The notes beneath the pieces are model-generated. The model ran no database searches. It had not been told where the DNA came from and worked only from the letters and a program-made list of their open reading frames with translations. Positions 5,632 through 56,110 of a DNA stretch of 56,110 bases are shown piece by piece. Each line of letters opens with the position of its first letter. Positions within the stretch are counted from its first letter, which is position 1. Source of the stretch: Bdellovibrionales bacterium (lineage in GTDB: Bacteria; Bdellovibrionota; Bdellovibrionia; Bdellovibrionales; UBA1609). The DNA lies in contig JALZUS010000055.1 in NCBI GenBank assembly GCA_023299885.1, positions 1-56,110 of the forward strand, read 5' to 3'. The position numbers and the translations under genes are program-made.

Positions 5632-5636
5632 TGAGT

Positions 5637-5766: not shown

Positions 5767-5849
5767 ATCCTTAGATAAGTTTAAGCCTTATAAAAATTTA
5801 ATTAACTAGGGCTGAGCTACAAGTGTTAACACTTGTAAAATGAGTGTTA

Positions 5850-6239: not shown

Positions 6240-6365
6240 ATTTATCTCCTAGATTGAGTTTAAAATTTTAGTTAATATGGATTACAACTAACATGAATTA
6301 ATATTTCAGTCTTGTAATATGAAAAGTTTATATTATTAGCTAGTGGGCTAGGATTGGTAGCGCAT

Positions 6366-9338: not shown

Positions 9339-9377
9339 GTATTAGCTGTAAGGTTATTTTTTCAACCCAATAGTTCT

Positions 9378-32117: not shown

Positions 32118-32193
32118 TGGCGCAACTGGGAGGACTCGAACCCCCAACCCCTTGATCCGAAGTCAAGTGCTCTATCCATTGAGCTACAGTTGC
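32118..32193 (-). tRNA. tRNA-Arg (anticodon UCG), CCA encoded
   Basis: The minus-strand sequence GCAACTGTAGCTCAATGGATAGAGCACTTGACTTCGGATCAAGGGGTTGGGGGTTCGAGTCCTCCCAGTTGCGCCA folds as a 76-nt cloverleaf. It has a 7-bp acceptor, GCTC/GAGC D-stem, CTTGA/TCAAG anticodon stem, loop CTTCGGA and a GGGGG/CCTCC T-stem with a TTCGAGT loop. Confidence 0.95.
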
Positions 32194-38836: not shown

Positions 38837-40144
38837 TTGTTTAATTTGCTGTTTAATTTTTTGGGCTCTCATTCCGATACATTATATGTGAAAGTTATCG
38901 TAATCATTATAGTTTTTTTATTTAGCTCTGGGCTATATGCTGCTGATACCGAGTATTTTTGTGAAAGTAATTTTAGCGAGCCTGGACTCATTTTTAGCAC
39001 CTCAAATATACTGACTGAAGCTACTGCTCAATGTGCATATCAGCTAAAAGATGAATGCCATGAAAATTTATTTTCACTTTTCAATAGTCTGTCTGCTGAC
39101 TTTAAAGAAAAAAATCCAAATGTAATTGCTAAAGCAGAAAGAGATTATATTAATTGGAAAAGTGGTAGAAAAAATTCATTATCAAAGAGCATAGCCAGTG
39201 ACCTAACAAAGAAAAGAGTCTCTCATTTATTAAACTCTGGGCTTCCCCCTGGAGTTATTAGCCAGGTTTTTACCGCCCTCACTTTATATGGAGAGGCTGG
39301 CAACTTAAACTCCGCAGAACAAGCTGCAGTTTATGAGTCTATAAAAGCTAGAAGCCAAAACATCATTTACAAATGGGTTAACGGTCTATGCATAAAGAAT
39401 TCAAGTGCTTCTACTAAAACCTGCAATAGCTATAAAAACAGATTTAGAGACAAAGATGTAAATCAGCTTGTTGATGATGTTGCTGACATTAAAGATATTA
39501 ATGGGGCCAACATTGGCACTTCGGACAGTTTCAATATGCTAGCCGCCAGCTACCAACCTGCCCAATTTTCATTTTGGAATAACAATAAAAGCTTAGATGA
39601 TAAATCTGTTGCTTTTACTCTAGATGCAAACTCTAAAAAAATAGAAACCGCCAAACTAAGACAAGAGCTATTACAAGCTTTACAGCACCCTACTAGAGAC
39701 TACAAACAATTGCGAGACCCTCATTTTAAAAAGACTAAAGCCCTTAACGAAGCTATACTAAGCCATAAACCTTTTACTATTACTGACTCTGACGGAAATA
39801 AAAAAGAAGTTATACTTACAGAGAGGCATAGAGAAAGCTTAGTCTATCAAAGCTCTGCCACGGCCAACCAATTAAAAACAGAGTCAAAACTTAGAAAAGT
39901 TTTTAATACTGTTGATAGCTTAGCTAACAACAAAGCTTTTATTAAAGTTAATGGTGAACACTCAAAAGAAGACAACCCTGATCTTACACACTACTATAAC
40001 CCAAAACTATTTAAGCCCTATAAAAACAAACCTTCACCACCAACATGGACAAAGGAATGTAAAACTGCAAAAGTAGAATACTGTACAGTTAACAGCGGAT
40101 GTACTACTGCCAATAAACATAGATTTTGCACAGGAGTTAGATAA
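38837..40144 (+). CDS. Secreted Cys-rich SleB/CwlJ-like (Hydrolase_2) cell-wall hydrolase, paralog 1
   Basis: LTLYGEAGNLNSAEQAAVYESIKARS compares with the family motif hYGEARGE...V..NR. QFSFWN, THYYNP and HRFC are also present. A hydrophobic signal segment is seen. The start is uncertain (TTG 38837 or GTG 38888). Confidence 0.6.
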   Translation: MFNLLFNFLGSHSDTLYVKVIVIIIVFLFSSGLYAADTEYFCESNFSEPGLIFSTSNILTEATAQCAYQLKDECHENLFSLFNSLSADFKEKNPNVIAKAERDYINWKSGRKNSLSKSIASDLTKKRVSHLLNSGLPPGVISQVFTALTLYGEAGNLNSAEQAAVYESIKARSQNIIYKWVNGLCIKNSSASTKTCNSYKNRFRDKDVNQLVDDVADIKDINGANIGTSDSFNMLAASYQPAQFSFWNNNKSLDDKSVAFTLDANSKKIETAKLRQELLQALQHPTRDYKQLRDPHFKKTKALNEAILSHKPFTITDSDGNKKEVILTERHRESLVYQSSATANQLKTESKLRKVFNTVDSLANNKAFIKVNGEHSKEDNPDLTHYYNPKLFKPYKNKPSPPTWTKECKTAKVEYCTVNSGCTTANKHRFCTGVR

Positions 40145-40708
40145 ATGAAATTATTAATAGCTACTATTATTTTATTCAGTATTACTGCTACAGCAAAACA
40201 CTCTAGAAAGCCTTCTAGCATAACCCTTAGATTTCAATCTAAAGACTGCCGTTCTGTTGAAGAAATGAATACTTTAAAAAACTCACTAAATGCCTTTAAA
40301 GTTTCTGACTGCACCACTTTGGAACAACAAATTAATAATAAAAGCTATACCTTTTTGATTGTCAGGAGCGTGCAGCAACCCCCTGACAAAGATAAAGCTA
40401 TTGATGCCAGCTGTAGTGTTGCTGATAAGATTTACGCCTACACAGAAAAAGGCTACAGATATATTAAAACCGCTGAAATTAAAGAAAAAGTTTCTTGTGA
40501 GTTTATCCCTGAAAAATTAAGCTCTAAAGAAAGCCCTATTAAGCTTATAAAAAAAGCTGAGAAAACTTATCTTGTTTTAGACTGGGAAAATGATAGTCAC
40601 TACACTCATTATGTTTTTGATAGCTCAAAAAAACGACTATTTAGGTACCTAGGAGCTATATCAAAAACAGAGCTTTATCTTGATCTAGGTCGCGAGCTCA
40701 ACTTTTAG
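40145..40708 (+). CDS. Small secreted 4-Cys protein, partner of hydrolase paralog 1
   Basis: The signal peptide is followed by the SRKPSS motif. The ATG immediately follows the hydrolase stop. It is paralogous to 42144-42713 in length, SRKP(S/T)S motif and four spaced Cys. Confidence 0.6.
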   Translation: MKLLIATIILFSITATAKHSRKPSSITLRFQSKDCRSVEEMNTLKNSLNAFKVSDCTTLEQQINNKSYTFLIVRSVQQPPDKDKAIDASCSVADKIYAYTEKGYRYIKTAEIKEKVSCEFIPEKLSSKESPIKLIKKAEKTYLVLDWENDSHYTHYVFDSSKKRLFRYLGAISKTELYLDLGRELNF

Positions 40709-40732
40709 CTCAAATCACCCGATAAAGTTAAT

Positions 40733-42142
40733 ATGAAACACCTAGTATTTATTCTGGTTCTTTTTGCCCAATTGCAGACCTTTGCTCATTTTTCAAAAAA
40801 TGGTAAGAGGCTAGGATGGCATTCACATACTGATAAGGTGGATAAAACTACAGTTGTAGATAGTAAGGGGCAAAGTGATTGCAAAACAACTACTGACAGC
40901 AACTTTAAAGATATCACCTGCAGCAGTCTTCCCTTTGAAGGCGAAATTAAAACTCAATGCCACGGCATAAAAATAGATCAATTCCTTTGTATTAATAAAT
41001 ACAATTGTCATTTTCCTGGAGCTGGCCTAAGCAATTCGATTCATATAACAAAGGGCAACCCTCTTCAGTGCTATCACCAATGTTTTGATAGCAAAACAAA
41101 ACGTGCTGAATATGATTACGAAAATAAAAAAATTAGTTATTTTGAGCTGACTCATTTAAAATACAAAGAAGGTAAAGTAGATTTCATAGAGCTCTATGAT
41201 GCTATCAATAATGACTTTCAAGATAAGCATAAAAAGCTTATCGAAGAGATTTCATCTTTACCTAGCAGAAATCCTTCTGGAGCTAAAATCAATGAACTTC
41301 AAGTTGAAAAATTTGCCCATTTATTTGCATTAAACCTTGAACCTGAAGTTGTTGATAAAATAGTTGCTGGATACACACTGGTAGGAGAAGCTGGCGAAGA
41401 GAACGCCCAAGAACAAGCAGCTGTTTATGCTGTCATAAAAAATAGAGCTGCTCCACTGCCTGGTTACAGTATTAATACTTCCGACGGGCCAATATGTAAG
41501 TCTCACCCTACAAAATGGCATAAACTTGAAGCCGAAAAAAGCAATACACAACTAGTACCAAACAGTTGCGACAAAAAGCATAAGGCCTATAGAGATATCA
41601 AACATGATACTAGAGACATAGATACCTTTGAGAGAATTACCAGTATTGGTAATGAAGCCGAAAACAAAGCTCTTAATAATATTTTAACAAGTATAGAAGA
41701 CAGGAATGCTTTATTTTACAAAGAAGAATCGCAAAAAGATACTTCATACAATATAGCTTTTGCAGCCTTAAAAACAAGGCAGTTCTCTTTTTGGAACTAT
41801 GACAACTTTAAAAATGGAAAACGAGTTAAAGATAGCACTGATGGAAAAAACATAAAGCGTGCTTTGTTTAGCGGCGCTGGAACTTCTCATACAAAGCGAC
41901 GAGCGCGTGAAAAAATAAAGAAAGCATTTGAAGTTATAGATAACGTGGAAAATGGTTCTATATCAGTTACGTTTAATGGCAAGCCTTACCAACAATATAG
42001 CTCTGTAACACATTATGCTACACCCGAGACTGAAAAATCATGGACCAATAGAAAAGTTAACGCAAAAGCATGTGCGCCAGAAAATGGAAAAAAGGTTTGC
42101 AGAACAATAAAAGAACATACGTTCTATAAACTAAGGATATAA
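40733..42142 (+). CDS. Secreted Cys-rich SleB/CwlJ-like (Hydrolase_2) cell-wall hydrolase, paralog 2
   Basis: Signal peptide present. YTLVGEAGEENAQEQAAVYAVIKNRA, RQFSFWN, THYATPE and HTFY match the same motif set as paralog 1. Confidence 0.65.
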   Translation: MKHLVFILVLFAQLQTFAHFSKNGKRLGWHSHTDKVDKTTVVDSKGQSDCKTTTDSNFKDITCSSLPFEGEIKTQCHGIKIDQFLCINKYNCHFPGAGLSNSIHITKGNPLQCYHQCFDSKTKRAEYDYENKKISYFELTHLKYKEGKVDFIELYDAINNDFQDKHKKLIEEISSLPSRNPSGAKINELQVEKFAHLFALNLEPEVVDKIVAGYTLVGEAGEENAQEQAAVYAVIKNRAAPLPGYSINTSDGPICKSHPTKWHKLEAEKSNTQLVPNSCDKKHKAYRDIKHDTRDIDTFERITSIGNEAENKALNNILTSIEDRNALFYKEESQKDTSYNIAFAALKTRQFSFWNYDNFKNGKRVKDSTDGKNIKRALFSGAGTSHTKRRAREKIKKAFEVIDNVENGSISVTFNGKPYQQYSSVTHYATPETEKSWTNRKVNAKACAPENGKKVCRTIKEHTFYKLRI

Positions 42143-42143
42143 T

Positions 42144-42713
42144 ATGAAAAGTTTGTATTTTGTAATTTTAATTTCGCTTATCTCTTTTAACTTAAAAGCT
42201 AGTGAATCGAGAAAACCTACAAGTTTAAATCCATCTGAGTGCGCTATAGTTAATAATAAAACAACTAATGCTGTAATCATAAATAGTACAAAGACTACTA
42301 TCAGTGGTAACCTCACTCCCATTACAAAAAGAATTTTAGGTTGTGAGCAAATAGACCCTAACATATCTTATAACTTTGAATTTTATAAAATAAAAATAAT
42401 AGCTGAGCCACAGGAAAACTCAGGAACAACTTTATGTAGTATCGAAGAGAGAGTTTACAGTAAAAAGAAAAATAGCAATATTTTGACATATCAGCTCTCA
42501 AGTGAAGTCGAAAGAAATATTCCTTGTGACACACTAAAAACTTACAGCGACGCTAACTCATTTATTTATCATACAGTCAGTAATAAAAAGCATTTTATTA
42601 CTGTTGATTCTGACAAATCTGACCCCTATGTTGTCTATTATGAGTTAGTTAACGACATACTAAAAAATAAACAGTTAAAATATAAAGGCTCAATAAAAAG
42701 AACTGAGCTCTAA
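42144..42713 (+). CDS. Small secreted 4-Cys protein, partner of hydrolase paralog 2
   Basis: The signal peptide is followed by SRKPTS. The ATG lies 1 nt after the hydrolase stop. The length is 189 aa against 187 aa for 40145-40708. Confidence 0.6.
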   Translation: MKSLYFVILISLISFNLKASESRKPTSLNPSECAIVNNKTTNAVIINSTKTTISGNLTPITKRILGCEQIDPNISYNFEFYKIKIIAEPQENSGTTLCSIEERVYSKKKNSNILTYQLSSEVERNIPCDTLKTYSDANSFIYHTVSNKKHFITVDSDKSDPYVVYYELVNDILKNKQLKYKGSIKRTEL

Positions 42714-44919: not shown

Positions 44920-47910
44920 TTATTTAATTTTACTTCTAAAAATTATATCAAAATTTGGATATGGAGCTGATCCCGAAGATCCACTCATGACACCTGTTGG
45001 TGCGGCCTGAATACCTTTTACCGCTTCATCAAAACCATTAGCATCTGGTACTGGCGTGTAGTTATAAGGCGCGCCCCCACCCACTTGGTTAGAGTACCTG
45101 ACATCAGTAGAAAAGTTAAAATTGAGGCCGCTACTCGGAGAGCCGTCATTAAACCTAACTGGTGTTGGGCCACCAGAACAAGTATTTGCCACACACATTA
45201 TCATTCTTGGTGGCAACGGGTCTGTAACTATAACAGAGCTATTGTCTGGACTCGCTTCCCCTTCGTTTCGAGTATTAATTATATATTCAATAGCAGAGCC
45301 TGGTATACGAAGCGGGCTTACAGTCCCTCTAACGGGATCAGAAATTAACACATTTAATTTCGTCGCTTTAATATCAACTACAGCATCAGTAATATTAAAT
45401 ACGCCTGCATGAGTATGAGTGATTGTACCCTCGGTACCTTCTTCTGCTGTAACAGTGTAAGACCACTGGCCTATAGCTGAAGTTGTTGCACTTGCGTATG
45501 GAAACTCATAAGTTTTAATAGCAAGGCCAGAGTCATTAACCTCAGTCATTAACTGATTATTTACTACAACATTACCAAGAGGATCTCTTATCGTTATCCT
45601 GGCAGCCGTAATATCGTAACTACCAAATGGGTCTGAAACATCAGACCTAAGATAAATTGTACTACCAGGAGTAAAATTTTGAGACAGCGCCCCAGCACCA
45701 AAAGCCGCATCATAAGCTTCTGTATTTTCAACTTTAATTACAGTGTTTGCATTTAAGTTAATCCTAAAGTTAACACCAACTCTTACCTCTCTATAGCGAA
45801 TTCTTTCTGCGACAGCTGTATTTAAATTTGTAACTCTAAGCCTTAACTGAGAACCTACAGGTATATTTACGGCCGAATTAAGGTCAATACCAAAGGTTAA
45901 AGTTTGCCAAGCACTACCGTTAGCAGAGTCATAAACGATTGTATCTGTACCAATAACACCAGCCGAAGAAGGGCCAACATAATCTAGTATAACTTCAACT
46001 GTCCTTACTGTCCCGGCCCCAGTCTCTCTCAGCTGAACAGGTATTGTAATTACTCCTGCACCCAACTCTAAATCCGTTTGCAGGGCCGGGCTTAAAGTAT
46101 ACAAACGATTGGCTCCACCATTAAGAATAATGTTTGTAGTGCTATTATTCACTAACCTATGGAGCACCCGACCTCCATTATCTTCTACATAAAGCTGTTT
46201 AACGCCCGAGTTAGGTACTAGTGATGGTGAAACGACAACACTAAAAGTTGATGGTGAAGCAGAAGACCCAATAGGCTCTCGCAAATCTGCAGTATTTGAA
46301 AAAGTATCCCCAGGGCTTACAACACCTAATACTGATAAATTAAAAACAACATCGACAGTAGAATTTCCAGGGACTGATATATTATCAATAGCCAATAAGC
46401 CATTACCATTAGGCCCCGTACCATTACCTGTAGAGTTATTCACAGCACCAGGAGGCAAACTCACTACACTTAAGTTTCCAAGTGCCGCCGGGATATTATC
46501 CCTTAACTGAGCTGCTGCGGCTCCTGCCGAGCTTGTATTAATTAAGCTCACTTTAAATTGTAATACATCACCAACATTCACTTCACCATTATTAATATCT
46601 TCAAAAGTCTTTGTACTTGTTGATATATCTGGGGCTATTAAATCGACTGTATCTGTTGCCCTGTTATTGTTTGTTATGTTGTCAAAATTAGTCCCTCTAA
46701 CTTCTGCTGTGTTTTGAAACTGAGGATATAAAGAGTTTTCTGGTACAACAGTCAAAGTAATAGGCGCAAAATCAGCATCATCGGCAACAACTTGAGTGCT
46801 TGTACAATTAACTGCTGGAGCTACAAAGTTACAGGTCCAGCCGGGGCCAGTTGCAGCCACATAATTTAAACCTGCAGGCAGCTCATCTCTAACAGTCGTA
46901 GTGCCTGACGTAGTACTCGGGCCATTGTTAGTTACTATGATATTAAAATCATTTTCTTCATTAAGGTTAAAATCACCATTATGTGTTTTTGAAAGAGTTA
47001 AATCACTCACCGGTGTATTTGTATTTAAAAAAGCTTGCACACCCAGCAAGACCAGGTCTTCACCAGCACTAAATGTTGATGTTGCACTTGTGTCCCCTGC
47101 AGACAGCACACTACTAATATCGTATTCATCCCAATCTATGCTGTAAAAGTCATTGCTAGTGCCATAAGTGTTAATTGTCGAGTTATACTGAGCATTAATC
47201 GGGTTTGCCGGGTTTGTCATAACTAGGCCGTTAGCAAAGATATTCTCAGTAAAGCCATTAAGAGCAGCAGAGTTTCCAGTGTCGCCTTCCCAAGAAAGAA
47301 CAGCAATCCTACCGCTTATTGGCGACGTAGGGATAACAAAATTATTAGGAGTAAAAATAACAGAGCTTCCACGAAAAAACTCCATACCATCATAAATATT
47401 AAAAACCCTTAAGTCTTCATTTGTGTTTTCATAAAGAACCAACAAAGCAAAACCAGAAAAAACAGCAGAAACAGCACAATGAGGTGCGCCAGTATTAACT
47501 TCTAGGCTACTTATTGAATAGCTACCATTTCCTGGCACTGAAGTTGTCACATCAGCATAGTTTTGCCAAAAATCATAGTCAGTCCCATTAAAAACAAAAG
47601 TATCTGAAAAACTTCTTTCTGCATTTACTGTACTTCCAGCAAAGGTCACTGTGTCATCAGAAGTAGATCCACTGCCACCCCAGTACAAATAAACTTTTTT
47701 AATTACAGAGCCAGCAGGAACACCTTCTACGTCAGCACTCACCGGACCAGTCGTTACAGCACAAGCATCCGTAGCGCTTGTTCTTAACGTGTTACCTGCA
47801 GTGACAAAGTTGATATTACCAGCAAAGGTTTCAAAAAAAGCAACCTGGTCAGCATAAGAAGAGGTAGCCATTAAAAAAGATAAAGTTATAAATAGCACTC
47901 TTAACTTCAT
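44920..47910 (-). CDS. Secreted 996-aa multi-DUF11 (conserved repeat domain) surface protein with a distinct ~290-aa N-terminal domain
   Basis: Signal peptide present. DUF11-type repeats are seen (DLTLSKTHNGDF...IIVTNNGPSTTSGTTTVRDELPAGLNYV and GDVLQFKVSLINTSSAGAAAAQLRDNIPAAL). The C-terminal domain SDPVRGTVSPLRIPGSAIEYIINTRNEG is shared with the 362-aa protein. The ATG overlaps the upstream stop by 1 nt. Confidence 0.75.
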   Translation of the reverse strand: MKLRVLFITLSFLMATSSYADQVAFFETFAGNINFVTAGNTLRTSATDACAVTTGPVSADVEGVPAGSVIKKVYLYWGGSGSTSDDTVTFAGSTVNAERSFSDTFVFNGTDYDFWQNYADVTTSVPGNGSYSISSLEVNTGAPHCAVSAVFSGFALLVLYENTNEDLRVFNIYDGMEFFRGSSVIFTPNNFVIPTSPISGRIAVLSWEGDTGNSAALNGFTENIFANGLVMTNPANPINAQYNSTINTYGTSNDFYSIDWDEYDISSVLSAGDTSATSTFSAGEDLVLLGVQAFLNTNTPVSDLTLSKTHNGDFNLNEENDFNIIVTNNGPSTTSGTTTVRDELPAGLNYVAATGPGWTCNFVAPAVNCTSTQVVADDADFAPITLTVVPENSLYPQFQNTAEVRGTNFDNITNNNRATDTVDLIAPDISTSTKTFEDINNGEVNVGDVLQFKVSLINTSSAGAAAAQLRDNIPAALGNLSVVSLPPGAVNNSTGNGTGPNGNGLLAIDNISVPGNSTVDVVFNLSVLGVVSPGDTFSNTADLREPIGSSASPSTFSVVVSPSLVPNSGVKQLYVEDNGGRVLHRLVNNSTTNIILNGGANRLYTLSPALQTDLELGAGVITIPVQLRETGAGTVRTVEVILDYVGPSSAGVIGTDTIVYDSANGSAWQTLTFGIDLNSAVNIPVGSQLRLRVTNLNTAVAERIRYREVRVGVNFRINLNANTVIKVENTEAYDAAFGAGALSQNFTPGSTIYLRSDVSDPFGSYDITAARITIRDPLGNVVVNNQLMTEVNDSGLAIKTYEFPYASATTSAIGQWSYTVTAEEGTEGTITHTHAGVFNITDAVVDIKATKLNVLISDPVRGTVSPLRIPGSAIEYIINTRNEGEASPDNSSVIVTDPLPPRMIMCVANTCSGGPTPVRFNDGSPSSGLNFNFSTDVRYSNQVGGGAPYNYTPVPDANGFDEAVKGIQAAPTGVMSGSSGSAPYPNFDIIFRSKIK

Positions 47911-50900
47911 TAGTTCACCCCTTCTTTATCTAAAATTGTAAACTCAAGATTTGCATTTGTGTAGACCCAATCTGTAGTTTTAATAGACGCTTCTTTTTCT
48001 ATTGCCTCAAACAATGGAAGCTCCAAAATTACAGGCTCTATTTTTTCATAATCAGGAAGCTCTAAAATCATTGGTAAAACTCTGGCCGGAAGCCTTGCCG
48101 GTGGAGGCACAAATTTATCATGATCTTCACAATCTTCCTCTAGATGCTCTTTTTGCTCTTTACTGTCTAAACCAAAAGTAGATTCATCAAAACGCAACCT
48201 TAACTTAATAAAAACACCTTGGTTTGTGTATTGAGCAGCATCAAAGTCTTTATCTGTAAATCCAGTAAAGTTATAGCCCAAAGATATCCAAGTGTTTTTA
48301 GCTGGACTCACACCAATCGATGGTCCAATAGCATACTCATGAATATTCGCTTCCCAAGAGTTTAAGGCGTAGGCATGTAAGCCTAAGTCAAAAGACTTGC
48401 CAATGAAGTGCCTTGCTTCAAAGCCTACAATATCTGTAAATGACTTAAATTTTTCATTATCAAACTGATCCTGGTTTAACTTAAAACCATAGTAAAAAGA
48501 CCACTGAAAGCGGCGATCTGCAGACAGCCTATTAAGATTAAAGTTATTAACAAGAGCTAAAGACTTAAAGTCTGTGTCTCCAGTAAAAGTGGTTTCACCT
48601 AATAAGTTTCGAGAATTCGGATTTTGAACATCTTCACTTTTAATTGTTAGCTTATTAAGTAGCGACCACTTACTTTTTAAAGGCCTATAAGCTATAGAGA
48701 AATCGGTCTGCAAAGATTGAGCCTTAGAATCTTTATTAAAAAATGACTGTAAATATTGGGTCCTTGCAGACACAACAACACCTTTATTTAGCTCATGGCT
48801 TAATTGTGACTGAAGGCCGTAACGTGTTTCTTCTTCGCCAAACCTTGTCTCACCACGAATATTCCAAGCCCAGTCTTCTTTTTTATAATGAAAGCCTAAA
48901 GCTCCACTTTTATAATCTTCAGTAAAGCCAGTATCGCCTAAAAAGCCACCAACACTATTTGGTAACGAGCTATCAATACCTGGTGTACTCTCTTGATTTT
49001 GAGACAGAGTCTCTGCAATATCAAAAGCAAGGTCCATTCTCCAGTGGGCGCTAAGAGTAATATTTTGCGTTAAACCCAAGTTAGAAAAACTTCTAGTACC
49101 TGACTCACTAAACTCTTGATTCACACCAGACTTAATTTTAGCACCAGCCCAAGGCGAGCTTTCTACACCAAATTTTGTAGTGTATAAGTCTCTAAACTGA
49201 CCTTGTGAAAACTCTTGGCCTAACACTAATCTTGTTTTAGGAGATAACTTATAACCAAGCTGCACAGCATACCTATCGGGAAAGTCTTGGCTTTGCAGGC
49301 TATCTTCTTGAATGTTTTTCTCTACACGAGCCTCAAGCTCATATTTACTTCCCAACCAATTTTTTCTTAAAGAGCCAATAGCTTGAGTAGAGTTAGACTC
49401 TATTAAACCGACCTCTTCTTTTACGTTTCTAGCTCCAAGCGCAATTTGATAGCTTTTTTCTTGAAATTTTAACTGCCCTTCAACAGACTCTCTTGAACTC
49501 CCCGTATCAAACAATGCATCATCGTAAAGTAGTTCTGCTCCCCAGCGTTCAGAGAAATTATATCTTGCACTTAGACCATATTTTTTTGTGCCTCTATCAG
49601 CAACAGACTCTTGTCCAAGGCCATATGCAGACTCAATATCTTGAGTGTATACGTTAACATCAAAACTTTTAGATTTATGCTTTAGCTCGGCCCTAAAAGC
49701 ACTTCCTAATTCATTAATTAAGCCTCTATCGCTTTCACCAAATTCTAAACCTACAGATGTCTTATTGTTAAAGTAATAAGTAGCATCTAAAGCGCTTAAT
49801 GTATTTGTTTCAGCATCCTCTTCTTCTCTTATATGACTAGCACCAATTTTTAATTTTTGATTTAATAATTTTAACTCTAAACGACCACCAGCAATTATAT
49901 CTTTGCTGCTAACACCTTCTGTTTCAAACTCAACAATAATAAACCTAGGGTTACCATTAAAGTCTCTTGCCTGATAATCCTCAATATTTTTAAAGTTTAT
50001 AACACCATTCAAAAAGTCTATATTGTAGTCTAAATAACGAGTCAGCACTTTAGAAGAGATAATTTTACTAGCATTAAATTTATCTCTTACCTCTATTCTT
50101 ACCTGATCAGAGTTAAATTGAACCGGCGCTTTATTAAGTCTTAAGTTTCCAAAACCAGAGGCCATGGTTTCAAACCTTTGGTAGCTACTATCAGCTTCAG
50201 TTCCAAAAACTTTAAATCCTATAACTTTTCCATCATACTCTGTCTTAACACCAGTAAAAGCACGATTATAACGAGCAAGTGTTGTATCGACTAGCCCAGC
50301 TTCATAATCACCAAATAAAGCATAAAACTTCGACTTTTCTATTCTTAAATAAAGCTTTTCACGGCTTGCAGCCTCTCTACGCTGAGTGGTCTGGTCGCCA
50401 TAAACTGTATAGTAACGGTCAGGATCAATAGCAGAGCCAAACTCATCATCTACTTGCTGTTTTCTACTGTCATAAGCAATTGTAGCTATCCATTCACCTT
50501 TAATCCTACCTCTTGCATAAAATTTTGCTTGAGAATCAAAGTCAGTATTTTCAGATTTTTCAGTATTTGACTTTAGAGTTTCAAAACCAACAGCTCCCTC
50601 TACAAAGCCAATAACCACCCATTCTTTTGCAACCGGCTTTAACCATGTCTTATACTCTTGGCTAGAGTTACCCACATGAGCCGTCACTCGCACTTCACCA
50701 ATCTCATTAGTTGGCGAAAGGGTTACATAAGCTGTACCTTCATCATCAGAAACAACCATTTCAGCGTTTTGAGGGTTTAATGTTTGCAGCTCGTCTTTTA
50801 ACAAGGCTTCTTCGGTATTTAAAGGTAAAAATGGTGAATTCACACTATAAGCTATTTTAACGCCTTTTCTTACAGGCTTATTTTGCTTATCCAAAACTTT

Positions 50901-53216
50901 AAAAGCAATTTTTATTGGCTTAATACCATCAGCATCTAAAAATGATTTCTCTTCTAAAATCTCTAGGCGGTCAGCATAGTTAGAGAAAAAGACGCTTCTT
51001 GTTTCACGCATTGCGATCTGCCCTTTTGAGTCTCTTACTTTTATTTCAATTAAGTTTTCGCCTTCTTCTACAGGGATAGAGCTCCACTGACTAACAGCCA
51101 CCCCTGTCCTTTTATCTTTATGTACTCTTTCAAAAAAGAGCGGGCTTACTTTTTTAGAATTTAATTTTATAGACACTGTGTCTGTCAGTAAATGCTTAAT
51201 GGCAACAACAGTCCCAGGGCTTCTTAAGTTTTTATTAGCTACAGGAAACAACCAACTTCTTCCTTTAGCCTGGCCTTGCAGCCAATCCTTACCAATACCA
51301 TTGATTTCTTTTTTAGCATCAAGCTCTATAATTTTTATTTCTCTATTTTCATCAAGCTTTACTTCTGAACCATGCTTAGCTCCTGAATCTTTTGCCAAAC
51401 ATGAACCCGTCTTTTTAGCATAAAAGACAACTCTCCATAATGACCCTGCCTGTAAATCAACAAATTGAGAGTTATGCTTTTTACCAGTACAGCTTGTTGG
51501 GCTACATTCTTGAAAGCGATAGCCTTCTGGCAAAGAAGAATCTATAGCTCTTACAACATGAGTCCCAGGAGTTACATCTTGAAAATGAAAACGACCATCC
51601 CTGTCTGTCACTACAGATGTACCGTCTTCCATATAGACTTTTACATTAGCTAAACCTTCAGATTTTAATAGCGGGTTTTTACAATCTTTAACGTCTAAAA
51701 CTTCACCTATGATTGTAGCTTGGTTTGTTAAGAATGGGCTTCTAATAGTAACCACAGCTTTAGCCTTATTACTTAGTAACCCATTAGCACTTCTTGCAAC
51801 AGCCACGTTTACTGCATCACCTATCGGAGTGACAGCTGTGACTTCAGAAATATAAGTTACATTCACTGAGTCCCCTGGAGATAAATCACCCACGGCAATA
51901 TCAAACCCATTATGCCTTAACTCTAAGTTAGAGCTATTAGCAGCAACTCCATCTACTTTCACTGACTCAGGTTTTAATTTAAAACCTCTTGGAAAGTTAT
52001 CTGTAATTGTAGCTGCTAAAGCTGTATTTGCAGAGCTGTTTGAAAGCCTTAAAGTGTATAAAATAAAATCGCCTAACAAAGCCTGTGACTGTTGAGCTAT
52101 TTTTGTTAACACCAAATCTGTCCCGAAAGGATCTACAGGTATATCAATATTTAATGCTGGCCCAGCACTCACATTAAATACTTCACCCCTCAAACCACCC
52201 TCTAAAGAGTAACTGTCTCCATTGGAGTCCGTTAAGTTAGCCAGTACAGAATCAGTTACCTGAGTTGGGAACTGATAACTTGGCGGCAAGCTTTCAACTT
52301 CTAAACGATAATCACCTGGTGGTATTAACGGAAACCTATAGCCTCCGACAGGCATAGTATATGTATTTAACCCCACAGTAAAAGTAGATCCCGTTATAAT
52401 TTCAAAAGGATAAGGCGTCACACCATCATCATCAAAAACAGTTGCTGGAGAACCATCTACAGCATTAACTAAGCGGACTAGAACATTATCTACCTCAATG
52501 CCTGTCGTAGAATCGTAAACTGTGCCAAAAGGGTCTACTAAAACATTGGCAATAGTAGTATCTGTTGGGAAATCTGCATCTATATAATCAACCGTAATTT
52601 GGCTGTTAATCTCTAAACTCAATTGGCAATCATTAGCTTGCACCGCAGGGGGCACTCTTAAACTTTGAATACTTCCGACAAAAAACCCAGAATCTACTGT
52701 AGTCTCACGGAGTCTTAATCTTTCGCTATCGCCATTACTTGTATTAATTTCTATTTCAATAGATTCCCTAAAGTTAGGGTCTTTATTTCTGTTAAGGTCA
52801 GTTAAACCTACAAAAATTGGCTCTGAAATATGGTAAGCCGTTGCAATATTTAAATCTATAGGGCTTAAGGTGTCTATAGCGTCACCATTAGAAGCTGTCG
52901 GCAATGGAGCATCAATAAATTGTCCACCACTAAAGCATTGTGTACCATTTGAAAAAACAGTCTCATCGCCACCGCTTGGTGTATAATGATAAAAAGTCAC
53001 TTCAGAAGGTGACGGCTCTGGTAAAACCGAAGCCGTTACAGTATTTGAAAGTATAGTTTGGCTGTTTGAGTTTGCATCAACAAAACTCAAAGTTGCCGTA
53101 TTTTCAATTGTTTGAGACATAGCTAAAGATGGGCTTATAAAGCCCAATAACAAGACCAAAAGGCATAGCTGAGCTACACCCTTTAATTTGTTAATTTTTT
53201 CTTTAGCTAATTTCAT
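47910..53216 (-). CDS. Giant (~1768 aa) secreted protein: N-terminal Ig-like/DUF11/prealbumin-like passenger domains, a Big_1-like domain, a very large putative C-terminal outer-membrane beta-barrel and a ~90-aa tail
   Basis: Signal peptide ending SLAMSQ. DUF11 repeat DLVLTKIAQQSQALLGDFILYTLRLSNSS...ITDNFPRGF. CarboxypepD_reg/Cna-B-like segments (VRLVNAVDGSP...GDYRLEV and VKVYMEDGTSVVTDRDGRFHFQDVTPGTHVV). Big_1-like VVSDDEGTAYVTLSPTNEIGEVRVTAHVG. About 850 aa with an alternating aromatic/hydrophobic strand pattern end in GVFIKLRLRF. ATG 53216 has an upstream AAGGA (TTG 53219 is the alternative). Confidence 0.7.
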   Translation of the reverse strand: MKLAKEKINKLKGVAQLCLLVLLLGFISPSLAMSQTIENTATLSFVDANSNSQTILSNTVTASVLPEPSPSEVTFYHYTPSGGDETVFSNGTQCFSGGQFIDAPLPTASNGDAIDTLSPIDLNIATAYHISEPIFVGLTDLNRNKDPNFRESIEIEINTSNGDSERLRLRETTVDSGFFVGSIQSLRVPPAVQANDCQLSLEINSQITVDYIDADFPTDTTIANVLVDPFGTVYDSTTGIEVDNVLVRLVNAVDGSPATVFDDDGVTPYPFEIITGSTFTVGLNTYTMPVGGYRFPLIPPGDYRLEVESLPPSYQFPTQVTDSVLANLTDSNGDSYSLEGGLRGEVFNVSAGPALNIDIPVDPFGTDLVLTKIAQQSQALLGDFILYTLRLSNSSANTALAATITDNFPRGFKLKPESVKVDGVAANSSNLELRHNGFDIAVGDLSPGDSVNVTYISEVTAVTPIGDAVNVAVARSANGLLSNKAKAVVTIRSPFLTNQATIIGEVLDVKDCKNPLLKSEGLANVKVYMEDGTSVVTDRDGRFHFQDVTPGTHVVRAIDSSLPEGYRFQECSPTSCTGKKHNSQFVDLQAGSLWRVVFYAKKTGSCLAKDSGAKHGSEVKLDENREIKIIELDAKKEINGIGKDWLQGQAKGRSWLFPVANKNLRSPGTVVAIKHLLTDTVSIKLNSKKVSPLFFERVHKDKRTGVAVSQWSSIPVEEGENLIEIKVRDSKGQIAMRETRSVFFSNYADRLEILEEKSFLDADGIKPIKIAFKVLDKQNKPVRKGVKIAYSVNSPFLPLNTEEALLKDELQTLNPQNAEMVVSDDEGTAYVTLSPTNEIGEVRVTAHVGNSSQEYKTWLKPVAKEWVVIGFVEGAVGFETLKSNTEKSENTDFDSQAKFYARGRIKGEWIATIAYDSRKQQVDDEFGSAIDPDRYYTVYGDQTTQRREAASREKLYLRIEKSKFYALFGDYEAGLVDTTLARYNRAFTGVKTEYDGKVIGFKVFGTEADSSYQRFETMASGFGNLRLNKAPVQFNSDQVRIEVRDKFNASKIISSKVLTRYLDYNIDFLNGVINFKNIEDYQARDFNGNPRFIIVEFETEGVSSKDIIAGGRLELKLLNQKLKIGASHIREEEDAETNTLSALDATYYFNNKTSVGLEFGESDRGLINELGSAFRAELKHKSKSFDVNVYTQDIESAYGLGQESVADRGTKKYGLSARYNFSERWGAELLYDDALFDTGSSRESVEGQLKFQEKSYQIALGARNVKEEVGLIESNSTQAIGSLRKNWLGSKYELEARVEKNIQEDSLQSQDFPDRYAVQLGYKLSPKTRLVLGQEFSQGQFRDLYTTKFGVESSPWAGAKIKSGVNQEFSESGTRSFSNLGLTQNITLSAHWRMDLAFDIAETLSQNQESTPGIDSSLPNSVGGFLGDTGFTEDYKSGALGFHYKKEDWAWNIRGETRFGEEETRYGLQSQLSHELNKGVVVSARTQYLQSFFNKDSKAQSLQTDFSIAYRPLKSKWSLLNKLTIKSEDVQNPNSRNLLGETTFTGDTDFKSLALVNNFNLNRLSADRRFQWSFYYGFKLNQDQFDNEKFKSFTDIVGFEARHFIGKSFDLGLHAYALNSWEANIHEYAIGPSIGVSPAKNTWISLGYNFTGFTDKDFDAAQYTNQGVFIKLRLRFDESTFGLDSKEQKEHLEEDCEDHDKFVPPPARLPARVLPMILELPDYEKIEPVILELPLFEAIEKEASIKTTDWVYTNANLEFTILDKEGVN

Positions 53217-53228
53217 CAATTAAAATCC

Positions 53229-54317
53229 TTAGTCGATAACTACATCGAAAGTAAGAGTTGTAGAAGTTCCGCCACCAGCAAGAGAACCAATAGCTCCTGT
53301 TACTGCGCCTGCCGTTGTTACGCCAAAGTCAGCACCGTTAGGGTCAGATTCATCAGCACCAGCTGTATCATCATCTTCTGCTACACCACCAATTTGGATT
53401 GTCCCAGGGACATATGTAGTATCTGTATCTAGTAAATCGTTTACAACTAAGTTGTCTGCCGCAGCAGCACCATCATTAGTAATGGTAATAGTCCACTTGA
53501 TAGTTGCACCAGGTATTCTTAATGGGTTTGTTGTTCCACGAGTTGGATCACTCACAACTTCTGATGTTTTAACAACAGCAATTTCAGCAGCCACAACTTC
53601 TACAGCACTCAATGCATGCACTTGGCCATCAGTAGCGGCATCACCACCTGTACCAGCAGCGTCAGCAAATAACGTGTCTTCCACATCTTCACCATCAGCA
53701 CCAGAAGCCACTAAAGCAGCACCTTCAGTTGCTGCAGCACCACTTTCAGCAGCAGTTGCTTGCAAGTTGATACCAATAATGTCTTCGTTCACTGCGCTTA
53801 CAGGAACATCAACAACAACAAAGATTTTTACATCAGCACCAGAAGCTAACTCATCTACAAAAGTTAAAGTATCTGTTGCTGGGTCATAAACACCATCACC
53901 GTTATCTACAAAAACCTGAGTGTTAGCAGCATCAATTGTATCTGAACCACCAAAGGCATCTGTTGCTGCAGCCGCCTGATCAACCGCGCTTAAGTTAAAG
54001 TCTAATACATCATTTGAAGTATTCTCTAACGTGTAAGTTAGTACAGAAGCTGAAGCGCCCGAGCTCCCTGGAACGCCTGACACATAAGCCGCATCATCTT
54101 TTACCAAGGTAAAGTTAACTTTTCTATCCACTACAAAGTCTGATGTATTTGAAGTTACCTGTGGCTGAGTTACTCCTCCTACGTCAAACACTACCGTAGC
54201 TGTGTTTTCTACAATCTCACCGGCTGTTGTCTCCTGAGCCCAAAGACTTTTACCAAAGCCTAAACTTAGAACCACAACGGCTGCAAGTTTGCAGACTGTT
54301 GTTTTATTTATTTCCAT
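53229..54317 (-). CDS. Secreted acidic Ala/Gly/Thr/Asp/Val-rich DUF11-like protein (362 aa)
   Basis: Signal peptide present, with a strong GGAGAA Shine-Dalgarno. The N-terminal ENTATVVF motif is present. The C-terminal DUF11-type domain is SDPTRGTTNPLRIPGATIKWTITITNDGAAAADNLVVNDLL. The DNA is visibly more GC-rich than its neighbours. Confidence 0.75.
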   Translation of the reverse strand: MEINKTTVCKLAAVVVLSLGFGKSLWAQETTAGEIVENTATVVFDVGGVTQPQVTSNTSDFVVDRKVNFTLVKDDAAYVSGVPGSSGASASVLTYTLENTSNDVLDFNLSAVDQAAAATDAFGGSDTIDAANTQVFVDNGDGVYDPATDTLTFVDELASGADVKIFVVVDVPVSAVNEDIIGINLQATAAESGAAATEGAALVASGADGEDVEDTLFADAAGTGGDAATDGQVHALSAVEVVAAEIAVVKTSEVVSDPTRGTTNPLRIPGATIKWTITITNDGAAAADNLVVNDLLDTDTTYVPGTIQIGGVAEDDDTAGADESDPNGADFGVTTAGAVTGAIGSLAGGGTSTTLTFDVVID

Positions 54318-54365
54318 ATACGTTCTCCTTTTTTATATTTGTTTATGGTTTTTTATTTAGTTAAA

Positions 54366-54821
54366 TCATTTAAGAAGCGCATAAAATTTTACGCTCCCCT
54401 TCTTTTTTGGTTTAATAGTTTTTGAAACCACCCACCTTACATGAGTGACATCTGTTTTTTTAGCAGGCCTCAGTTTGCCCGATGCTTTTACTTTTAATTG
54501 AGATAAGGCTCCGAATTTTTTACCACCATCGACAGAAACTATGGCTCCATCATCAGCAGATTGAAATACAACTTCTTTTGCAAGCTTGTTGTTGATAATT
54601 ATGTTTGAAGCGTTTTCTTTACCTTTGTTTTCATAACTAATCACATAGGTTAACAAACTTCCAGGGATGACTTTTGTCGCTGGAACTGTTTTTTTAACAA
54701 TTTTTCCGTTTTTCTTTTTCTCTTCTATTTCTACAAAAACTTTATTTGTAAGGGCGATGCTTTGAGCACCAAAAGAGGATGATGCATACAAAACTGCAAA
54801 TGCAAATACTAATTTTTTCAT
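54366..54821 (-). CDS. Small basic secreted single-DUF11-domain protein (~151 aa)
   Basis: ATG 54821 is preceded by AGGAG at 6-nt spacing and gives the signal peptide MKKLVFAFAVLYASSSFGA. DUF11-like VIPGSLLTYVISYENKGKENASNIIINNKL. Lys-rich. Confidence 0.7.
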   Translation of the reverse strand: MKKLVFAFAVLYASSSFGAQSIALTNKVFVEIEEKKKNGKIVKKTVPATKVIPGSLLTYVISYENKGKENASNIIINNKLAKEVVFQSADDGAIVSVDGGKKFGALSQLKVKASGKLRPAKKTDVTHVRWVVSKTIKPKKKGSVKFYALLK

Positions 54822-54848
54822 AAATAACTCCTTTGAAAATAACTTCAC

Positions 54849-55799
54849 TTATTGAACCTCCACTTTAAAAACAACTTGTACTGTTTGCGGGGCATTTAAA
54901 TTTCCTAAATTAATTTTCACTTTGCTGCCATCAAATTCACCAGCATCTGCATCCGCGGCATCAGTCATTGCCGTTGCTTCAAAAACTAAAGAGCCAGGCA
55001 CGTAAGTTGTGCCCGCGGGGATAGCGTCCTCTAAAGTAGAAGCGCTATAAACACCTGTTCCTGTAATTTCCACAGCCAAAGAGTATGTGATGATTGAACC
55101 CTTAGTTGCCTGGGCCCCACCTGTTGGACTTATTATTGATTGCGATTTTTTAACCTCTATAGTCATACTCGACACAAAGTAGAAACTAATAGATTCAGCA
55201 AAACCACCAGAAGCACCTAGTACCGCATCTATCCCATCGTCTCCAGCTCCAGGAAAAAGCGTCCCCATAAGCCCAGTGCCTACAGAAGATGTAGCACTGA
55301 TTGTTAAATTAGCTTTATCATCTTGAGCAAGGCCGCCTGGTAAATCAGAAACTATAAAAACCTCTATATCTCCACCCAAGGGAAGCTCTGGGTCATTAAC
55401 ACCAGGAGAGTAAATCTCGTCGACAGTAACATCAAACAAACCATCCCCATCTTTATCTAAATAAATTTTGGGATTAATGGCATTAAAATCATCAGCAGTA
55501 TCTTGGCTTAGTGACAACAGGTATTTGTCTGTTCCGTTGCCTGTATTTTTTAAGGTAAAGCTTAATACTTCATTTAAACCAGGACTGGTTCCCTGCACAC
55601 CATTAGAGTGATTAGTTATAATGCTATGGTCTACTATTTCCAAAACATTAAACGAAACAATATTAGAAAGCGCTGTTACTTCTTTGCCCGCTTCAAGGTA
55701 GGTTACTGACGCTTGGTTTTCTATAAGTGTGTTAGCTGGCGACAAAGCTATAGCTTTATTTGTAAAAAAAATTAAAAAAATAATTAAAAATTTATTCAA
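54849..55799 (-). CDS. Secreted DUF11-like two-domain protein (316 aa), first gene of the operon
   Basis: The TTG start is preceded by a GAGGAAAG Shine-Dalgarno. Signal peptide present. Motifs: LIENQASVTY, LSFTLKNTGNGTDKYLLSL and GSIITYSLAVEITG...LEDAIPAGTTYVPGS. Confidence 0.7.
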   Translation of the reverse strand: MNKFLIIFLIFFTNKAIALSPANTLIENQASVTYLEAGKEVTALSNIVSFNVLEIVDHSIITNHSNGVQGTSPGLNEVLSFTLKNTGNGTDKYLLSLSQDTADDFNAINPKIYLDKDGDGLFDVTVDEIYSPGVNDPELPLGGDIEVFIVSDLPGGLAQDDKANLTISATSSVGTGLMGTLFPGAGDDGIDAVLGASGGFAESISFYFVSSMTIEVKKSQSIISPTGGAQATKGSIITYSLAVEITGTGVYSASTLEDAIPAGTTYVPGSLVFEATAMTDAADADAGEFDGSKVKINLGNLNAPQTVQVVFKVEVQ

Positions 55800-56110
55800 A
55801 ACTTTCCTCTAACGTACAGCCATGCAATGGACTTAATATTTTATTTTCTTAAGGCTTGGGGTTCAAACAACACCCCTCGTTTCTAAGACCCCAAAGTAAG
55901 GATTTTCGGTTAACCTTAATTTAAAATATCCCTAACCATTTCAGTACTTTATCGGAAGTTTTAACAGAATTCCTAAGAGGAAAATGAGGCCCAAACTACA
56001 CCATGTCAAAGCTAACATGATCGATTTGAGGATTTTTAGCTCTATTTTAAGAATTTTAGGTGGTTTTATAGATTTTTAAGATTGAGCTTTAAAGTTTTTT
56101 GCAAAAAACT

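Follow-up and report, generated by a model that had tools for sequence, protein, structure and literature searches.

The stretch of DNA analysed here, referred to as the window, comprises 56,110 nucleotides of a Bdellovibrionales bacterium (assembly GCA_023299885.1, contig JALZUS010000055.1) and carries an operon of five genes, g1 to g5, whose products are candidate components of a cell-surface fibre. In terms of layout, the open reading frame (ORF) calls place all five genes on the minus strand in the order of transcription g1-g2-g3-g4-g5, with gaps of 27 nt (g1–g2, from the ATG start of g2), 48 nt (g2–g3) and 9–12 nt (g3–g4) and an overlap of 1 nt between g4 and g5 (TAATG), in agreement with the five coupled genes and the spacing (27, 48 and ~12 nt, 1-nt overlap) described in a first-pass annotation of the same letters (Table 1). 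That annotation had also assigned a signal peptide and a DUF11-type domain to every product, and both assignments hold. On inspection of segments and motifs, a hydrophobic N-terminal segment followed by an AxA-like cleavage site is present in all five proteins, and none of the five has a later transmembrane-like segment or an LPxTG motif (LP.[TSA]G). PF01345 (DUF11) exceeds its 24.6-bit Pfam cut-off in g2, g3, g4 and g5, and TIGR01451 exceeds its 24-bit NCBIfam cut-off in all five; g1 (TIGR01451, E = 2.4e-7) has only a sub-threshold Pfam DUF11 match. DUF11 was renamed CLIPPER in 2025 and is a CnaA-like nine-strand sandwich (PMC12617251).

Table 1. Features of the g1–g5 operon, given as positions in the window
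Feature	Position	Strand	Description
Leader upstream of g1	55800-56110	minus	311 nt, no ORF; probable promoter region
g1	54849-55799	minus	316 aa; putative subunit with N-terminal donor hairpin and C-terminal acceptor domain
g1 donor hairpin	55641-55742	minus	residues 20-53, SPANTLIENQASVTY...SNIVSFNV, with Asn28
g1 C-terminal truncated CLIPPER (acceptor) domain	54852-55163	minus	with Lys218, Asp258
g2	54366-54848	minus	160 aa from GTG; 151 aa from ATG at 54821 (54366-54821)
g3	53229-54317	minus	362 aa; donor hairpin, middle Ig-like domain, acceptor domain
g3 donor hairpin	54123-54236	minus	residues 28-65, with Asn38
g3 acceptor domain	53232-53624	minus	residues 232-362, with Lys250, Asp294
RNA stem-loop at g3/g4 junction	53150-53195	minus	within g4 signal-peptide codons
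g4	47910-53219	minus	1769 aa from TTG, 1768 aa from next ATG; donor hairpin, Ig-like stalk, predicted ~38-strand barrel, degenerate OmpA-like tail
g4 donor hairpin	53022-53120	minus	residues 34-66, QTIENTATLSF...SNTVTASV, with Asn40
g4 Pro-rich linker	52998-53021	minus	PEPSPSE, after the hairpin
g4 internal complete CLIPPER domain	51735-52139	minus	Lys373, Asp407, Asn471; DUF11 E = 2.6e-9
Two Ig-like domains before the barrel	50634-51257	minus	residues 655-862; part of conserved module
Giant β-barrel region	48150-50618	minus	residues 868-1690, ~820 aa
Inserted β-domain	49950-50189	minus	~80 residues (1011-1090), after first 7-8 barrel strands
Degenerate g4 C-terminal tail	47916-48149	minus	residues 1691-1768; OmpA-like domain lost
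g5	44920-47910	minus	996 aa; head, CLIPPER stalk, acceptor domain
g5 N-terminal head	47011-47850	minus	residues 21-300; DUF3344-like
g5 C-terminal acceptor domain	44923-45399	minus	residues 838-996, with Lys851, Asp897

In the crystal structure of a CLIPPER domain (9IFR), Lys715 and Asn806 are joined by an intramolecular isopeptide bond whose presumed catalyst is Asp748 (PMC12617251). When the profile of the g4 CLIPPER domain and its relatives is aligned to 9IFR, Lys373, Asp407 and Asn471 of g4 fall on Lys715, Asp748 and Asn806, respectively. In complete domains of this kind the Lys of an "LxLxK" motif and the Asp of a "VxDxLP" motif are invariant, the Asn of an "AVNxAxA" motif is at least 90% conserved, and the Asn strand is followed by one further strand ("SNxAxAxV"). 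This single CLIPPER domain of g4 is complete, and g4 has no truncated copy. The proteins g1, g2, g3 and g5, together with all of their homologues, end 1–2 residues past the last strand before the Asn strand ("...TVxFxVxI[NDQ]" and stop). Residues 228–315 of g1 cover positions 17–100 of a 144-position hidden Markov model (HMM) of the complete CLIPPER domain, the protein ending at residue 316, and the Pfam DUF11 profile is matched from position 11 to 84 of 114, up to the C-terminus; in g2, which consists of a single acceptor-type domain, DUF11 profile positions 4–70 are matched. The C-terminal domain noticed earlier as common to the 362-residue g3 and the 996-residue g5 is borne out by BLASTP (44% identity over 54 residues, E = 7e-11).

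At the opposite end, g1, g3 and properly started g4 homologues open a few residues after signal-peptide cleavage with the pattern "IxNxAxVxY/F...SNxVxFxV", which by motif comparison matches the two closing strands of a complete CLIPPER domain ("AVNxAxA....SNxAxAxV"). The form "GTxAGTxIxNxA...SNxV" stands directly after the signal peptide in 65 g1 homologues, its I, N and A each being at least 90% conserved, and Asn28, Lys218 and Asp258 each reach at least 90% conservation in 65 g1 sequences. Only six columns are invariant in 80 g3 sequences, and three of these are Asn38, in the hairpin, and Lys250 and Asp294, in the C-terminal domain. The g4 hairpin has the same motif as those of g1 and g3 and was found in 42 of 74 distinct g4 homologues; most of the others show no recognisable signal peptide at their automatically chosen start. 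As judged from these motifs, the isopeptide triad of g1 and g3 is present but divided between the two termini, with the Lys (on strand 1) and the presumed catalytic Asp in the C-terminal domain and the Asn in the N-terminal hairpin, and this hairpin (hereafter the donor hairpin) may represent the missing CLIPPER strands 8 and 9, an equivalence with weak statistical support. In chimeras, addition of the donor hairpin to the g3 C-terminal domain lengthens the DUF11 alignment from profile positions 15–64 to 15–100, 15–105 or 15–111 (of 114), and on the g1 or g3 domain the profile reach is 100–111 of 114, with a gain of 0.5–5 bits.

The g5-type acceptor domain shows the recipient half of this arrangement by itself. 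Among 120 homologues the Lys is conserved in 96% and the Asp in 95%, without any conserved late Asn; the domain invariably forms the C-terminus, and no g5-type protein starts with a donor hairpin. In four sphingomonad genomes (Sphingobium L012, Sphingomonas L059, Sphingomonas dokdonensis L077 and Novosphingobium L087; L numbers denote related loci), g5-type proteins of 169–175 residues are composed of the signal peptide and the acceptor domain alone, so that self-completion in cis is impossible for them. An internal segment of g5, "VIKVENTEAY", was considered as a general cis donor and rejected, since these minimal proteins of ~170 residues do not contain it. In g2, the isopeptide Lys position is not conserved among 63 homologues (it is Asn in the window copy), and "NPxP" takes the place of "DxLP". 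On this evidence g5-type proteins are orphan acceptors, g2 is an acceptor devoid of the Lys and Asp, and g1 and g3 are donors and acceptors at once; g4, which has a hairpin and only a complete CLIPPER domain, is an orphan donor. The existence of orphan donors and orphan acceptors argues for pairing in trans, and a head-to-tail polymer whose two ends differ would need just such a set of one orphan donor, orphan acceptors and two donor/acceptors. From its sequence, g2 is probably a non-covalent cap, decoy or periplasmic chaperone that binds donor hairpins reversibly.

The two donor/acceptor proteins are paralogues over their whole length (g1 versus g3: 27% identity over 286 residues, E = 2e-16, BLASTP), and g3 is the probable major subunit. 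It is the best conserved of the five genes against locus L002, a 79%-identical relative (88% identity for g3), and the 88 g3 homologues found are labelled hypothetical or TIGR01451-family, except for two distant "proprotein convertase P-domain" proteins. The AlphaFold2 model of mature g3 has a mean predicted local distance difference test (pLDDT) score of 95.2 and a predicted template modelling (pTM) score of 0.86. Its donor hairpin is modelled as two confident β-segments (pLDDT 93–97 at the N-terminus), and its C-terminal domain comprises an extra strand, β0, and seven canonical strands; the seven C-terminal and two N-terminal strands make nine in all, as in the CLIPPER crystal structure (PMC12617251). 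Foldseek returns generic tandem immunoglobulin (Ig)-like matches for this model, the donor-strand-complemented CfaB and Saf constructs among them, and PDB sequence and profile searches with the g3 family found nothing relevant.

The giant protein of the operon, g4, contains by Pfam DUF11, CarboxypepD_reg/SdrD_B-type β-sandwiches and a weak Big_1 match (21.8 bits against a cut-off of 34.9 bits). The first-pass annotation had proposed an outer-membrane barrel in this ~1768-residue protein from strand periodicity, and structure prediction agrees. The AlphaFold2 model of residues 630–1705, built from a 37-sequence alignment (mean pLDDT 80.1, pTM 0.72), consists over residues ~868–1690 almost wholly of long antiparallel strands; its DSSP string contains ~39 long strands, from which a very large barrel of 36–40 (~38) strands is estimated. 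Residues 655–862, in front of the barrel, are modelled as two β-sandwiches (pLDDT 85–92) and contain the weak Big_1 match, and relatives align to this two-Ig region and the barrel in one stretch. The inserted β-domain folds in short strands (model residues 382–447), is the most conserved stretch of the barrel family and is a candidate plug of the barrel lumen in the model. The terminal strand and a "GYNFxGFxDxDF" motif are likewise conserved in the family. The barrel region has no Pfam match even at E ≤ 5, and PDB sequence and profile searches with g4 and with the conserved N-terminal stretch of the barrel module gave nothing relevant. Foldseek of the model yields generic large barrels only (SlpA, MtrB, LptD, FimD/PapC, SprA and TonB-dependent receptors), with query-normalised TM-scores of at most 0.21 and no value above 0.32.

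The segment GVFIKLRLRF, earlier taken for a typical terminal strand at the protein end, is indeed the last barrel strand, but it is not the end of the protein. The 78 residues that follow it are the remnant of an OmpA-like domain. In the relative P0002 (79% identity to g4), PF00691 occupies ~125 residues between "PPPA" and "YTN..EFTILDKEGV". At the same site the window g4 has ~50 unrelated residues with a duplicated 13-residue motif (PMILELPDYEKIE / PVILELPLFEAIE), and only the first and last residues of the OmpA-like domain, its flanks, remain, so that an internal deletion or replacement has taken place; the other reading frames at the g4 tail contain no OmpA remnant. Short "barrel-only" relatives were considered as evidence that the stalk is optional and set aside, as they are N-terminally truncated metagenomic fragments and uninformative in this regard.

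The N-terminal head of g5 was originally singled out as unique. The window copy has no Pfam match in this region, but many full-length g5 homologues (~40% identity) score as PF11824 (DUF3344), and some carry MG2 (PF01835). The motif "YLYW(A/G)GSG" is conserved in the head, and PDB sequence and profile searches with g5 and with the g5 head found nothing relevant. DUF3344 figures, with its function called "ambiguous", among the clusters of N-terminal domains of predicted fibrillar adhesins (PMC9210967). The Henriciella analogue of g5 has GEVED and CshA_NR2 as its head domains. The part in front of the acceptor domain of g5-type proteins ranges from nothing to ~1700 residues, and the end is always the same 160-residue domain. 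Two different g5-type acceptor-only proteins are encoded in L001/L011 (17461-18429 and 18443-21451) and in L079 (12487-20479), which suggests alternative tips for one fibre machinery.

The operon is present in hundreds of Gram-negative species. When a single genome of each species was scanned with a trimmed 189-residue alignment as query, at least 511 related loci were confirmed. Among the 63 loci of other species' genomes that were informative, that is, had enough upstream DNA, 56 have the order g1<g2<g3<g4, with g1 kept as the first gene; of the other seven, three lack g2 and four were scored out of order only because g1 cross-matches its paralogue g3. The colinear loci span Sphingomonadales, Woeseiaceae, other Gammaproteobacteria, Nitrospirota, Bdellovibrionota and others, so that the gene set co-occurs across phyla, the first-pass annotation having proposed a test of synteny in related genomes, and the clustering is not due to chance. 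Relatives of g4 occur, for example, in Bdellovibrionota, Sphingomonas, Henriciella, Opitutales and Latescibacteria, many of them with a C-terminal OmpA domain. An exhaustive HMMER search of a 50%-identity protein library with the two-Ig and barrel module returned 3059 clusters at E ≤ 1e-3 and 1003 at E ≤ 1e-30, and among the best 150 listed relatives nearly all align as one stretch over ~1040 residues. The fifth gene varies in position: it lies downstream of g4 and overlaps it in L002 and L005, as in the window, and upstream or on the opposite strand in L010 and L001.

The labels borne by relatives of g3, g4 and g5 are mostly "hypothetical protein", "uncharacterized repeat protein (TIGR01451 family)", "DUF11 domain-containing" and "OmpA family protein", with other generic labels in a few cases, and NCBIfam release 20 has no model for these relatives beyond the TIGR01451 repeat. 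Profile searches of the five proteins and nine downstream neighbouring ORFs detected no PapD-type chaperone, usher, sortase or component of type I or type IX secretion systems (T1SS, T9SS), as had been noted by eye, and no Pfam or NCBIfam profile assigns the barrel or the small proteins to chaperone-usher, type V, sortase, T1SS or T9SS machinery. A description of the operon was not found in open-access full text, although one in a subscription journal remains possible. The "Pam" pilus of the candidate phyla radiation (CPR) and the haloarchaeal tafi were considered as descriptions of the operon and are different systems. We are confident that the five genes belong to a conserved, undescribed outer-membrane system, and the view of the locus as an undescribed set of fibre or adhesin subunits, pore and tip that matches no known pathway has gained support while remaining a candidate. 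To that view the present analysis adds an assembly logic, namely terminal CLIPPER domains whose triad is split between the termini, with orphan donors and orphan acceptors.

The reading that we favour, with a probability of roughly one half, is that the operon encodes a modular fibre of the cell surface, assembled by donor-strand complementation and then locked covalently by intermolecular isopeptide bonds. The subunits would be exported by Sec, and the donor hairpin of each incoming subunit would complete the truncated CLIPPER domain of the previous one. The rebuilt Lys/Asp/Asn triad could then form an intermolecular Lys-Asn isopeptide bond spontaneously, with no need of a sortase. From tip to base the chain would run g5 (head and acceptor), [g3/g1]n, g4 (donor, stalk, barrel and OmpA domain). 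The g5 protein would act as a distal tip adhesin with a variable head (DUF3344-like here, CshA_NR2/GEVED in Henriciella), and g4 would form the proximal end, its hairpin on a Pro-rich leash terminating and anchoring the fibre. The g4 barrel would hold the fibre in the outer membrane, the OmpA-like domain of most relatives would tie it to peptidoglycan, and g2 would bind donor hairpins reversibly. The fibre may also pass through the g4 barrel, the sole candidate conduit in the locus for the Sec-exported subunits. A more elaborate version goes further and seems to us somewhat doubtful: a widespread Gram-negative fibre class polymerised by split-CLIPPER "tag and catcher" pairs, exported through and ligated to a ~38-strand barrel that is usher, terminator and peptidoglycan-tied anchor in one, with g2 as a lysine-less decoy chaperone against premature ligation.

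Several observations weigh against the fibre. In the AlphaFold2 monomer model, g3 accommodates its own hairpin with high confidence, so that completion in cis appears sterically possible. In locus-wide chimeras scored with a local CLIPPER HMM, the hairpin adds only ~1.5 bits to the g1 domain, compared with 0.3–0.8 bits for shuffled hairpins, and nothing to the g3 and g2 domains, whose long insertions cut the local alignment short. Alignment of the hairpin profile to the complete CLIPPER domain by hhalign places NTATV onto the expected Asn111 at E = 0.2, which we do not count as evidence. The g4 of the window has itself lost its C-terminal OmpA-like domain (no PF00691 match), and in many Sphingomonas loci the nearest 10 kb contain no g5-type gene. 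No component accounts for energy supply or for the ordering of subunits, and the model leaves unexplained how folded subunits and the stalk of g4 itself would share one pore. Finally, the strand count of the barrel and any plug role of the insert are estimates from the DSSP string of a model.

The least distant alternative, which we hold to be unlikely, is completion in cis: g1 and g3 would be monomeric two-domain surface or periplasmic proteins in which a circularly permuted CLIPPER domain receives its own hairpin and forms an intramolecular isopeptide bond, and only the g4 hairpin would capture g5 (or g2) in trans, giving a two-piece adhesin and no polymer. Isopeptide-bonded pilins of Gram-positive bacteria often contain nested or permuted Ig domains, the g3 monomer model is very confident, hairpin included, and the extra strand β0 before strand 1 eases the return path geometrically. 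True donor-strand pilins also self-complement in monomer predictions, however, so that the g3 model does not discriminate between a cis-permuted domain and a self-complementing donor-strand subunit, and conservation of the triad fits cis and trans equally. What tells against completion in cis is that the g3 acceptor is homologous to the g5 acceptor, which must be filled in trans; that in the many loci with g1–g4 but no nearby g5-type gene the g4 hairpin would be left without a covalent partner unless g1 or g3 accepts it; and that it is difficult to account, other than by polymerisation, for two paralogous donor-and-acceptor proteins conserved ahead of an orphan donor. Less probable again is a self-contained g4, a giant outer-membrane adhesin or envelope anchor (autotransporter-like, or SlpA-like with a huge barrel and a peptidoglycan-binding domain), with g1, g2, g3 and g5 as accessory or matrix proteins that are secreted independently or associated with the outer membrane and have no more than CLIPPER domains in common, and with neither fibre nor strand exchange. 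The domain order passenger, barrel, OmpA is consistent with this notion, as are the presence of Deinococcus SlpA and of the S-layer deinoxanthin-binding complex among the top Foldseek matches and the precedent of an Acinetobacter adhesin in which one chain carries both a CLIPPER stalk and an OmpA-like anchor (PMC12617251), yet it leaves unexplained the exact stop of the partner proteins at CLIPPER strand 7, the occurrence of the missing hairpin at the N-termini of g1, g3 and g4, the split invariant triad and the strict gene order across phyla.

An inward orientation, in which the Ig-like chain links the barrel to peptidoglycan or the inner membrane as an envelope tether or as an MtrB- or LptD-like trans-envelope conduit, appears improbable. 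An even strand number together with a periplasmic OmpA domain would put the N-terminus of the barrel, and so the start of the stalk, in the periplasm, and MtrB and LptD are among the fold matches; against this, the tip heads (DUF3344, CshA_NR2/GEVED) are typical of extracellular adhesins, CLIPPER domains have been described from cell-surface proteins (PMC12617251), and no cytochromes, lipid-transport genes or inner-membrane partners are present in any locus examined. That the operon is a divergent member of a characterised pathway (chaperone-usher, type V secretion, type V pili, T9SS cargo or sortase pili) is hardly credible. The FimD and PapC ushers do appear among the Foldseek matches of the barrel (E ~2e-7), as do CfaB and Saf constructs among those of g3, but the TM-scores of 0.15–0.3 are at the generic level for barrels and Ig domains; the Usher, PapD_N, Fimbrial, Autotransporter, IAT_beta, T9SS C-terminal domain (CTD) and sortase/LPxTG profiles are all absent, and neither Pfam (E ≤ 5) nor PDB profile searches place the barrel.

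The favoured fibre is nevertheless reminiscent of chaperone-usher pili (type 1/P and archaic Csu/CupE) in its overall plan. It would share with them an operon of Ig-like subunits that each have an N-terminal donor segment and an incomplete C-terminal fold, a tip adhesin that is acceptor only, a terminator that is donor only, a polarity from tip first to base last and a large outer-membrane barrel, here possibly with an inserted plug-like domain. The differences are in the parts themselves. The g4 protein has no PF00577 match (E ≤ 0.01), no Fimbrial family is present, and the Foldseek alignment to FimD has TM-scores of 0.18 (query-normalised) and 0.23 (target-normalised); the modelled ~38 strands compare with 24 in the usher, whose plug lies between β6 and β7; and no PF00345/PF02753 chaperone is found in the five proteins, the nine scanned neighbours or the related loci inspected. 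The putative donor here is a two-strand hairpin of a CnaA-like domain that bears the isopeptide Asn, with a fold that is not Fimbrial/PF00419, and the barrel protein would itself be the terminal anchoring subunit, with a peptidoglycan-binding domain in relatives. A separate SCPU/usher (archaic chaperone-usher) cluster lies 5 kb downstream of the operon in the Henriciella locus (L003, 20066-24917), so that both systems coexist there.

The division of an isopeptide-forming Ig-like domain such that a terminal strand with one reactive residue ligates to the rest also recalls engineered split isopeptide domains such as SpyTag/SpyCatcher, which Zakeri et al. reportedly engineered in 2012 from a CnaB2 domain (Lys-Asp); the split proposed here would be natural, CnaA-like (Lys-Asn) and used for polymerisation. 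Proteins of type V secretion (autotransporters; intimin/invasin) share with g4 a passenger and a barrel on one polypeptide and Big_1-like Ig domains next to the barrel, whereas g4 has no Pfam match to PF03797, the 12-strand autotransporter β-domain, or to inverse-autotransporter barrels and its barrel region spans ~820 residues. Type V barrels have 12–16 strands, SprA 36, SlpA 30 and LptD/MtrB 26, and the predicted g4 barrel is comparable in size only to the largest known examples; SprA, LptD and SlpA have other partners and functions. Sortase-assembled Gram-positive pili likewise have a tip adhesin, a basal subunit and covalently linked CnaA/CnaB-type pilins, but the present proteins have no LPxTG motif, no C-terminal transmembrane segment and no pilin-motif lysine chemistry, their hosts are diderm, and no sortase gene is found in the window flanks or the related loci inspected. 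T9SS cargo and T1SS RTX adhesins differ in that no Por_Secre_tail or RTX match is obtained (Pfam, NCBIfam) and the signal peptides are N-terminal and Sec-type.

The chemistry proposed here has a precedent in BsaA of Clostridium perfringens, a TasA-family protein that polymerises by "donor-strand exchange and lock" with a spontaneous intermolecular isopeptide bond and no sortase; there the donated N-terminal strand contributes the Asn, and the recipient subunit the Lys and Glu, as mutagenesis confirmed (PMC11580942). BsaA differs in its TasA-like fold and N-E-K triad (CLIPPER/CnaA-like and N-D-K here, with no TasA-family match), in its monoderm host and secretion linked to SipW and type IV pilus genes, and in having no outer-membrane component and no dedicated tip or base subunit. 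Archaeal threads (Saci_0406) also combine donor-strand complementation with apparent inter-subunit isopeptide bonds (PMC9715654), and they and the Tat-fimbriae (PMC11821415) are built from head-to-tail Ig-like subunits, but these systems are archaeal, without an outer membrane, with non-homologous genes and another fold, and the archaeal bond is of different chemistry, joining Asn57 to the N-terminal amine between subunits n and n+2. The order of adhesive head, CLIPPER stalk and OmpA-like anchor is found in the crystallised protein B9T28_05395 of Acinetobacter silvestris (PMC12617251), there on one polypeptide with complete domains, whereas the chain proposed here would be distributed over 4–5 gene products and include a giant barrel. 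By sequence, the only family membership that we assign is that of the CLIPPER domain itself.

If the proposed mechanism is correct, the operon would represent a further route of pilus or fibre assembly in diderms beside chaperone-usher pili, type IV pili, curli and type V pili, and it would bring covalent, sortase-independent ligation of subunits, so far known only from a clostridial matrix protein and archaeal threads, behind an outer membrane. The barrel family, ~3000 clusters at 50% identity, is large and without any annotation, and a single-chain barrel of ~38 strands would, if real, be the largest of its kind known. The mechanism offers a testable function for thousands of entries named "uncharacterized repeat protein (TIGR01451 family)" in Sphingomonas, Woeseiaceae, Nitrospirota, Bdellovibrionota and others, and the hairpin/acceptor pairs could serve protein-ligation technology as natural orthogonal pairs. 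The nearest relatives of the window are uncultured Bacteriovoracaceae and other Bdellovibrionota, and the fibre would be a candidate prey-attachment organelle in what is likely a low-GC relative of the predatory Bacteriovoracaceae.

In terms of expression signals, the leader of g1 contains one sigma-70-like match (55838-55866, minus strand), although promoter-like matches are no commoner in the scan than in shuffled sequence; terminator-like sites number 18, against 8.6 expected from shuffles. The stem-loop at the g3/g4 junction, one of these terminator-like sites, lies ~40 nt past the g3 stop and has a stem of ~21 bp and a minimum free energy of −25.8 kcal/mol (z = −3.16), and L002 has an equivalent hairpin of different sequence in the same place (~9296-9341). 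By analogy with attenuators after major-pilin genes, this element could set a high g3 to low g4 expression ratio.

The surroundings of the operon differ between loci. A gene for a secreted lysyl-endopeptidase/trypsin-like protease lies directly upstream of the g1 homologue in L005 (5491-6924) and L006 (647-2080), a single gammaproteobacterial-type contig pair, and may be a processing enzyme or a coincidence. In L001, a locus from a Bdellovibrionota metagenome-assembled genome, a secretin and T2SSE ATPase pair is encoded just upstream on the opposite strand (5006-7170). In the window, five of the nine downstream neighbours scanned have Pfam matches (ABC1 kinase, MoCF, GT2 glycosyltransferase, SAM decarboxylase and spermidine synthase) and four have none; no usher, PapD-type chaperone, sortase or T1SS/T9SS part is among the nine. 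Four consecutive plus-strand ORFs of 435, 187, 469 and 189 codons without a Pfam match (38837-42713) adjoin the GT2 glycosyltransferase gene, and at least two unannotated ORFs of similar size, with the same GT2 gene, also adjoin the operon in L002; the four ORFs are absent from distant loci and are probably unrelated to the system. The G+C content of the window is 36–40%, and its only 2-kb bin above 41% holds a single tRNA-Arg(TCG) gene (32118-32193, minus strand).

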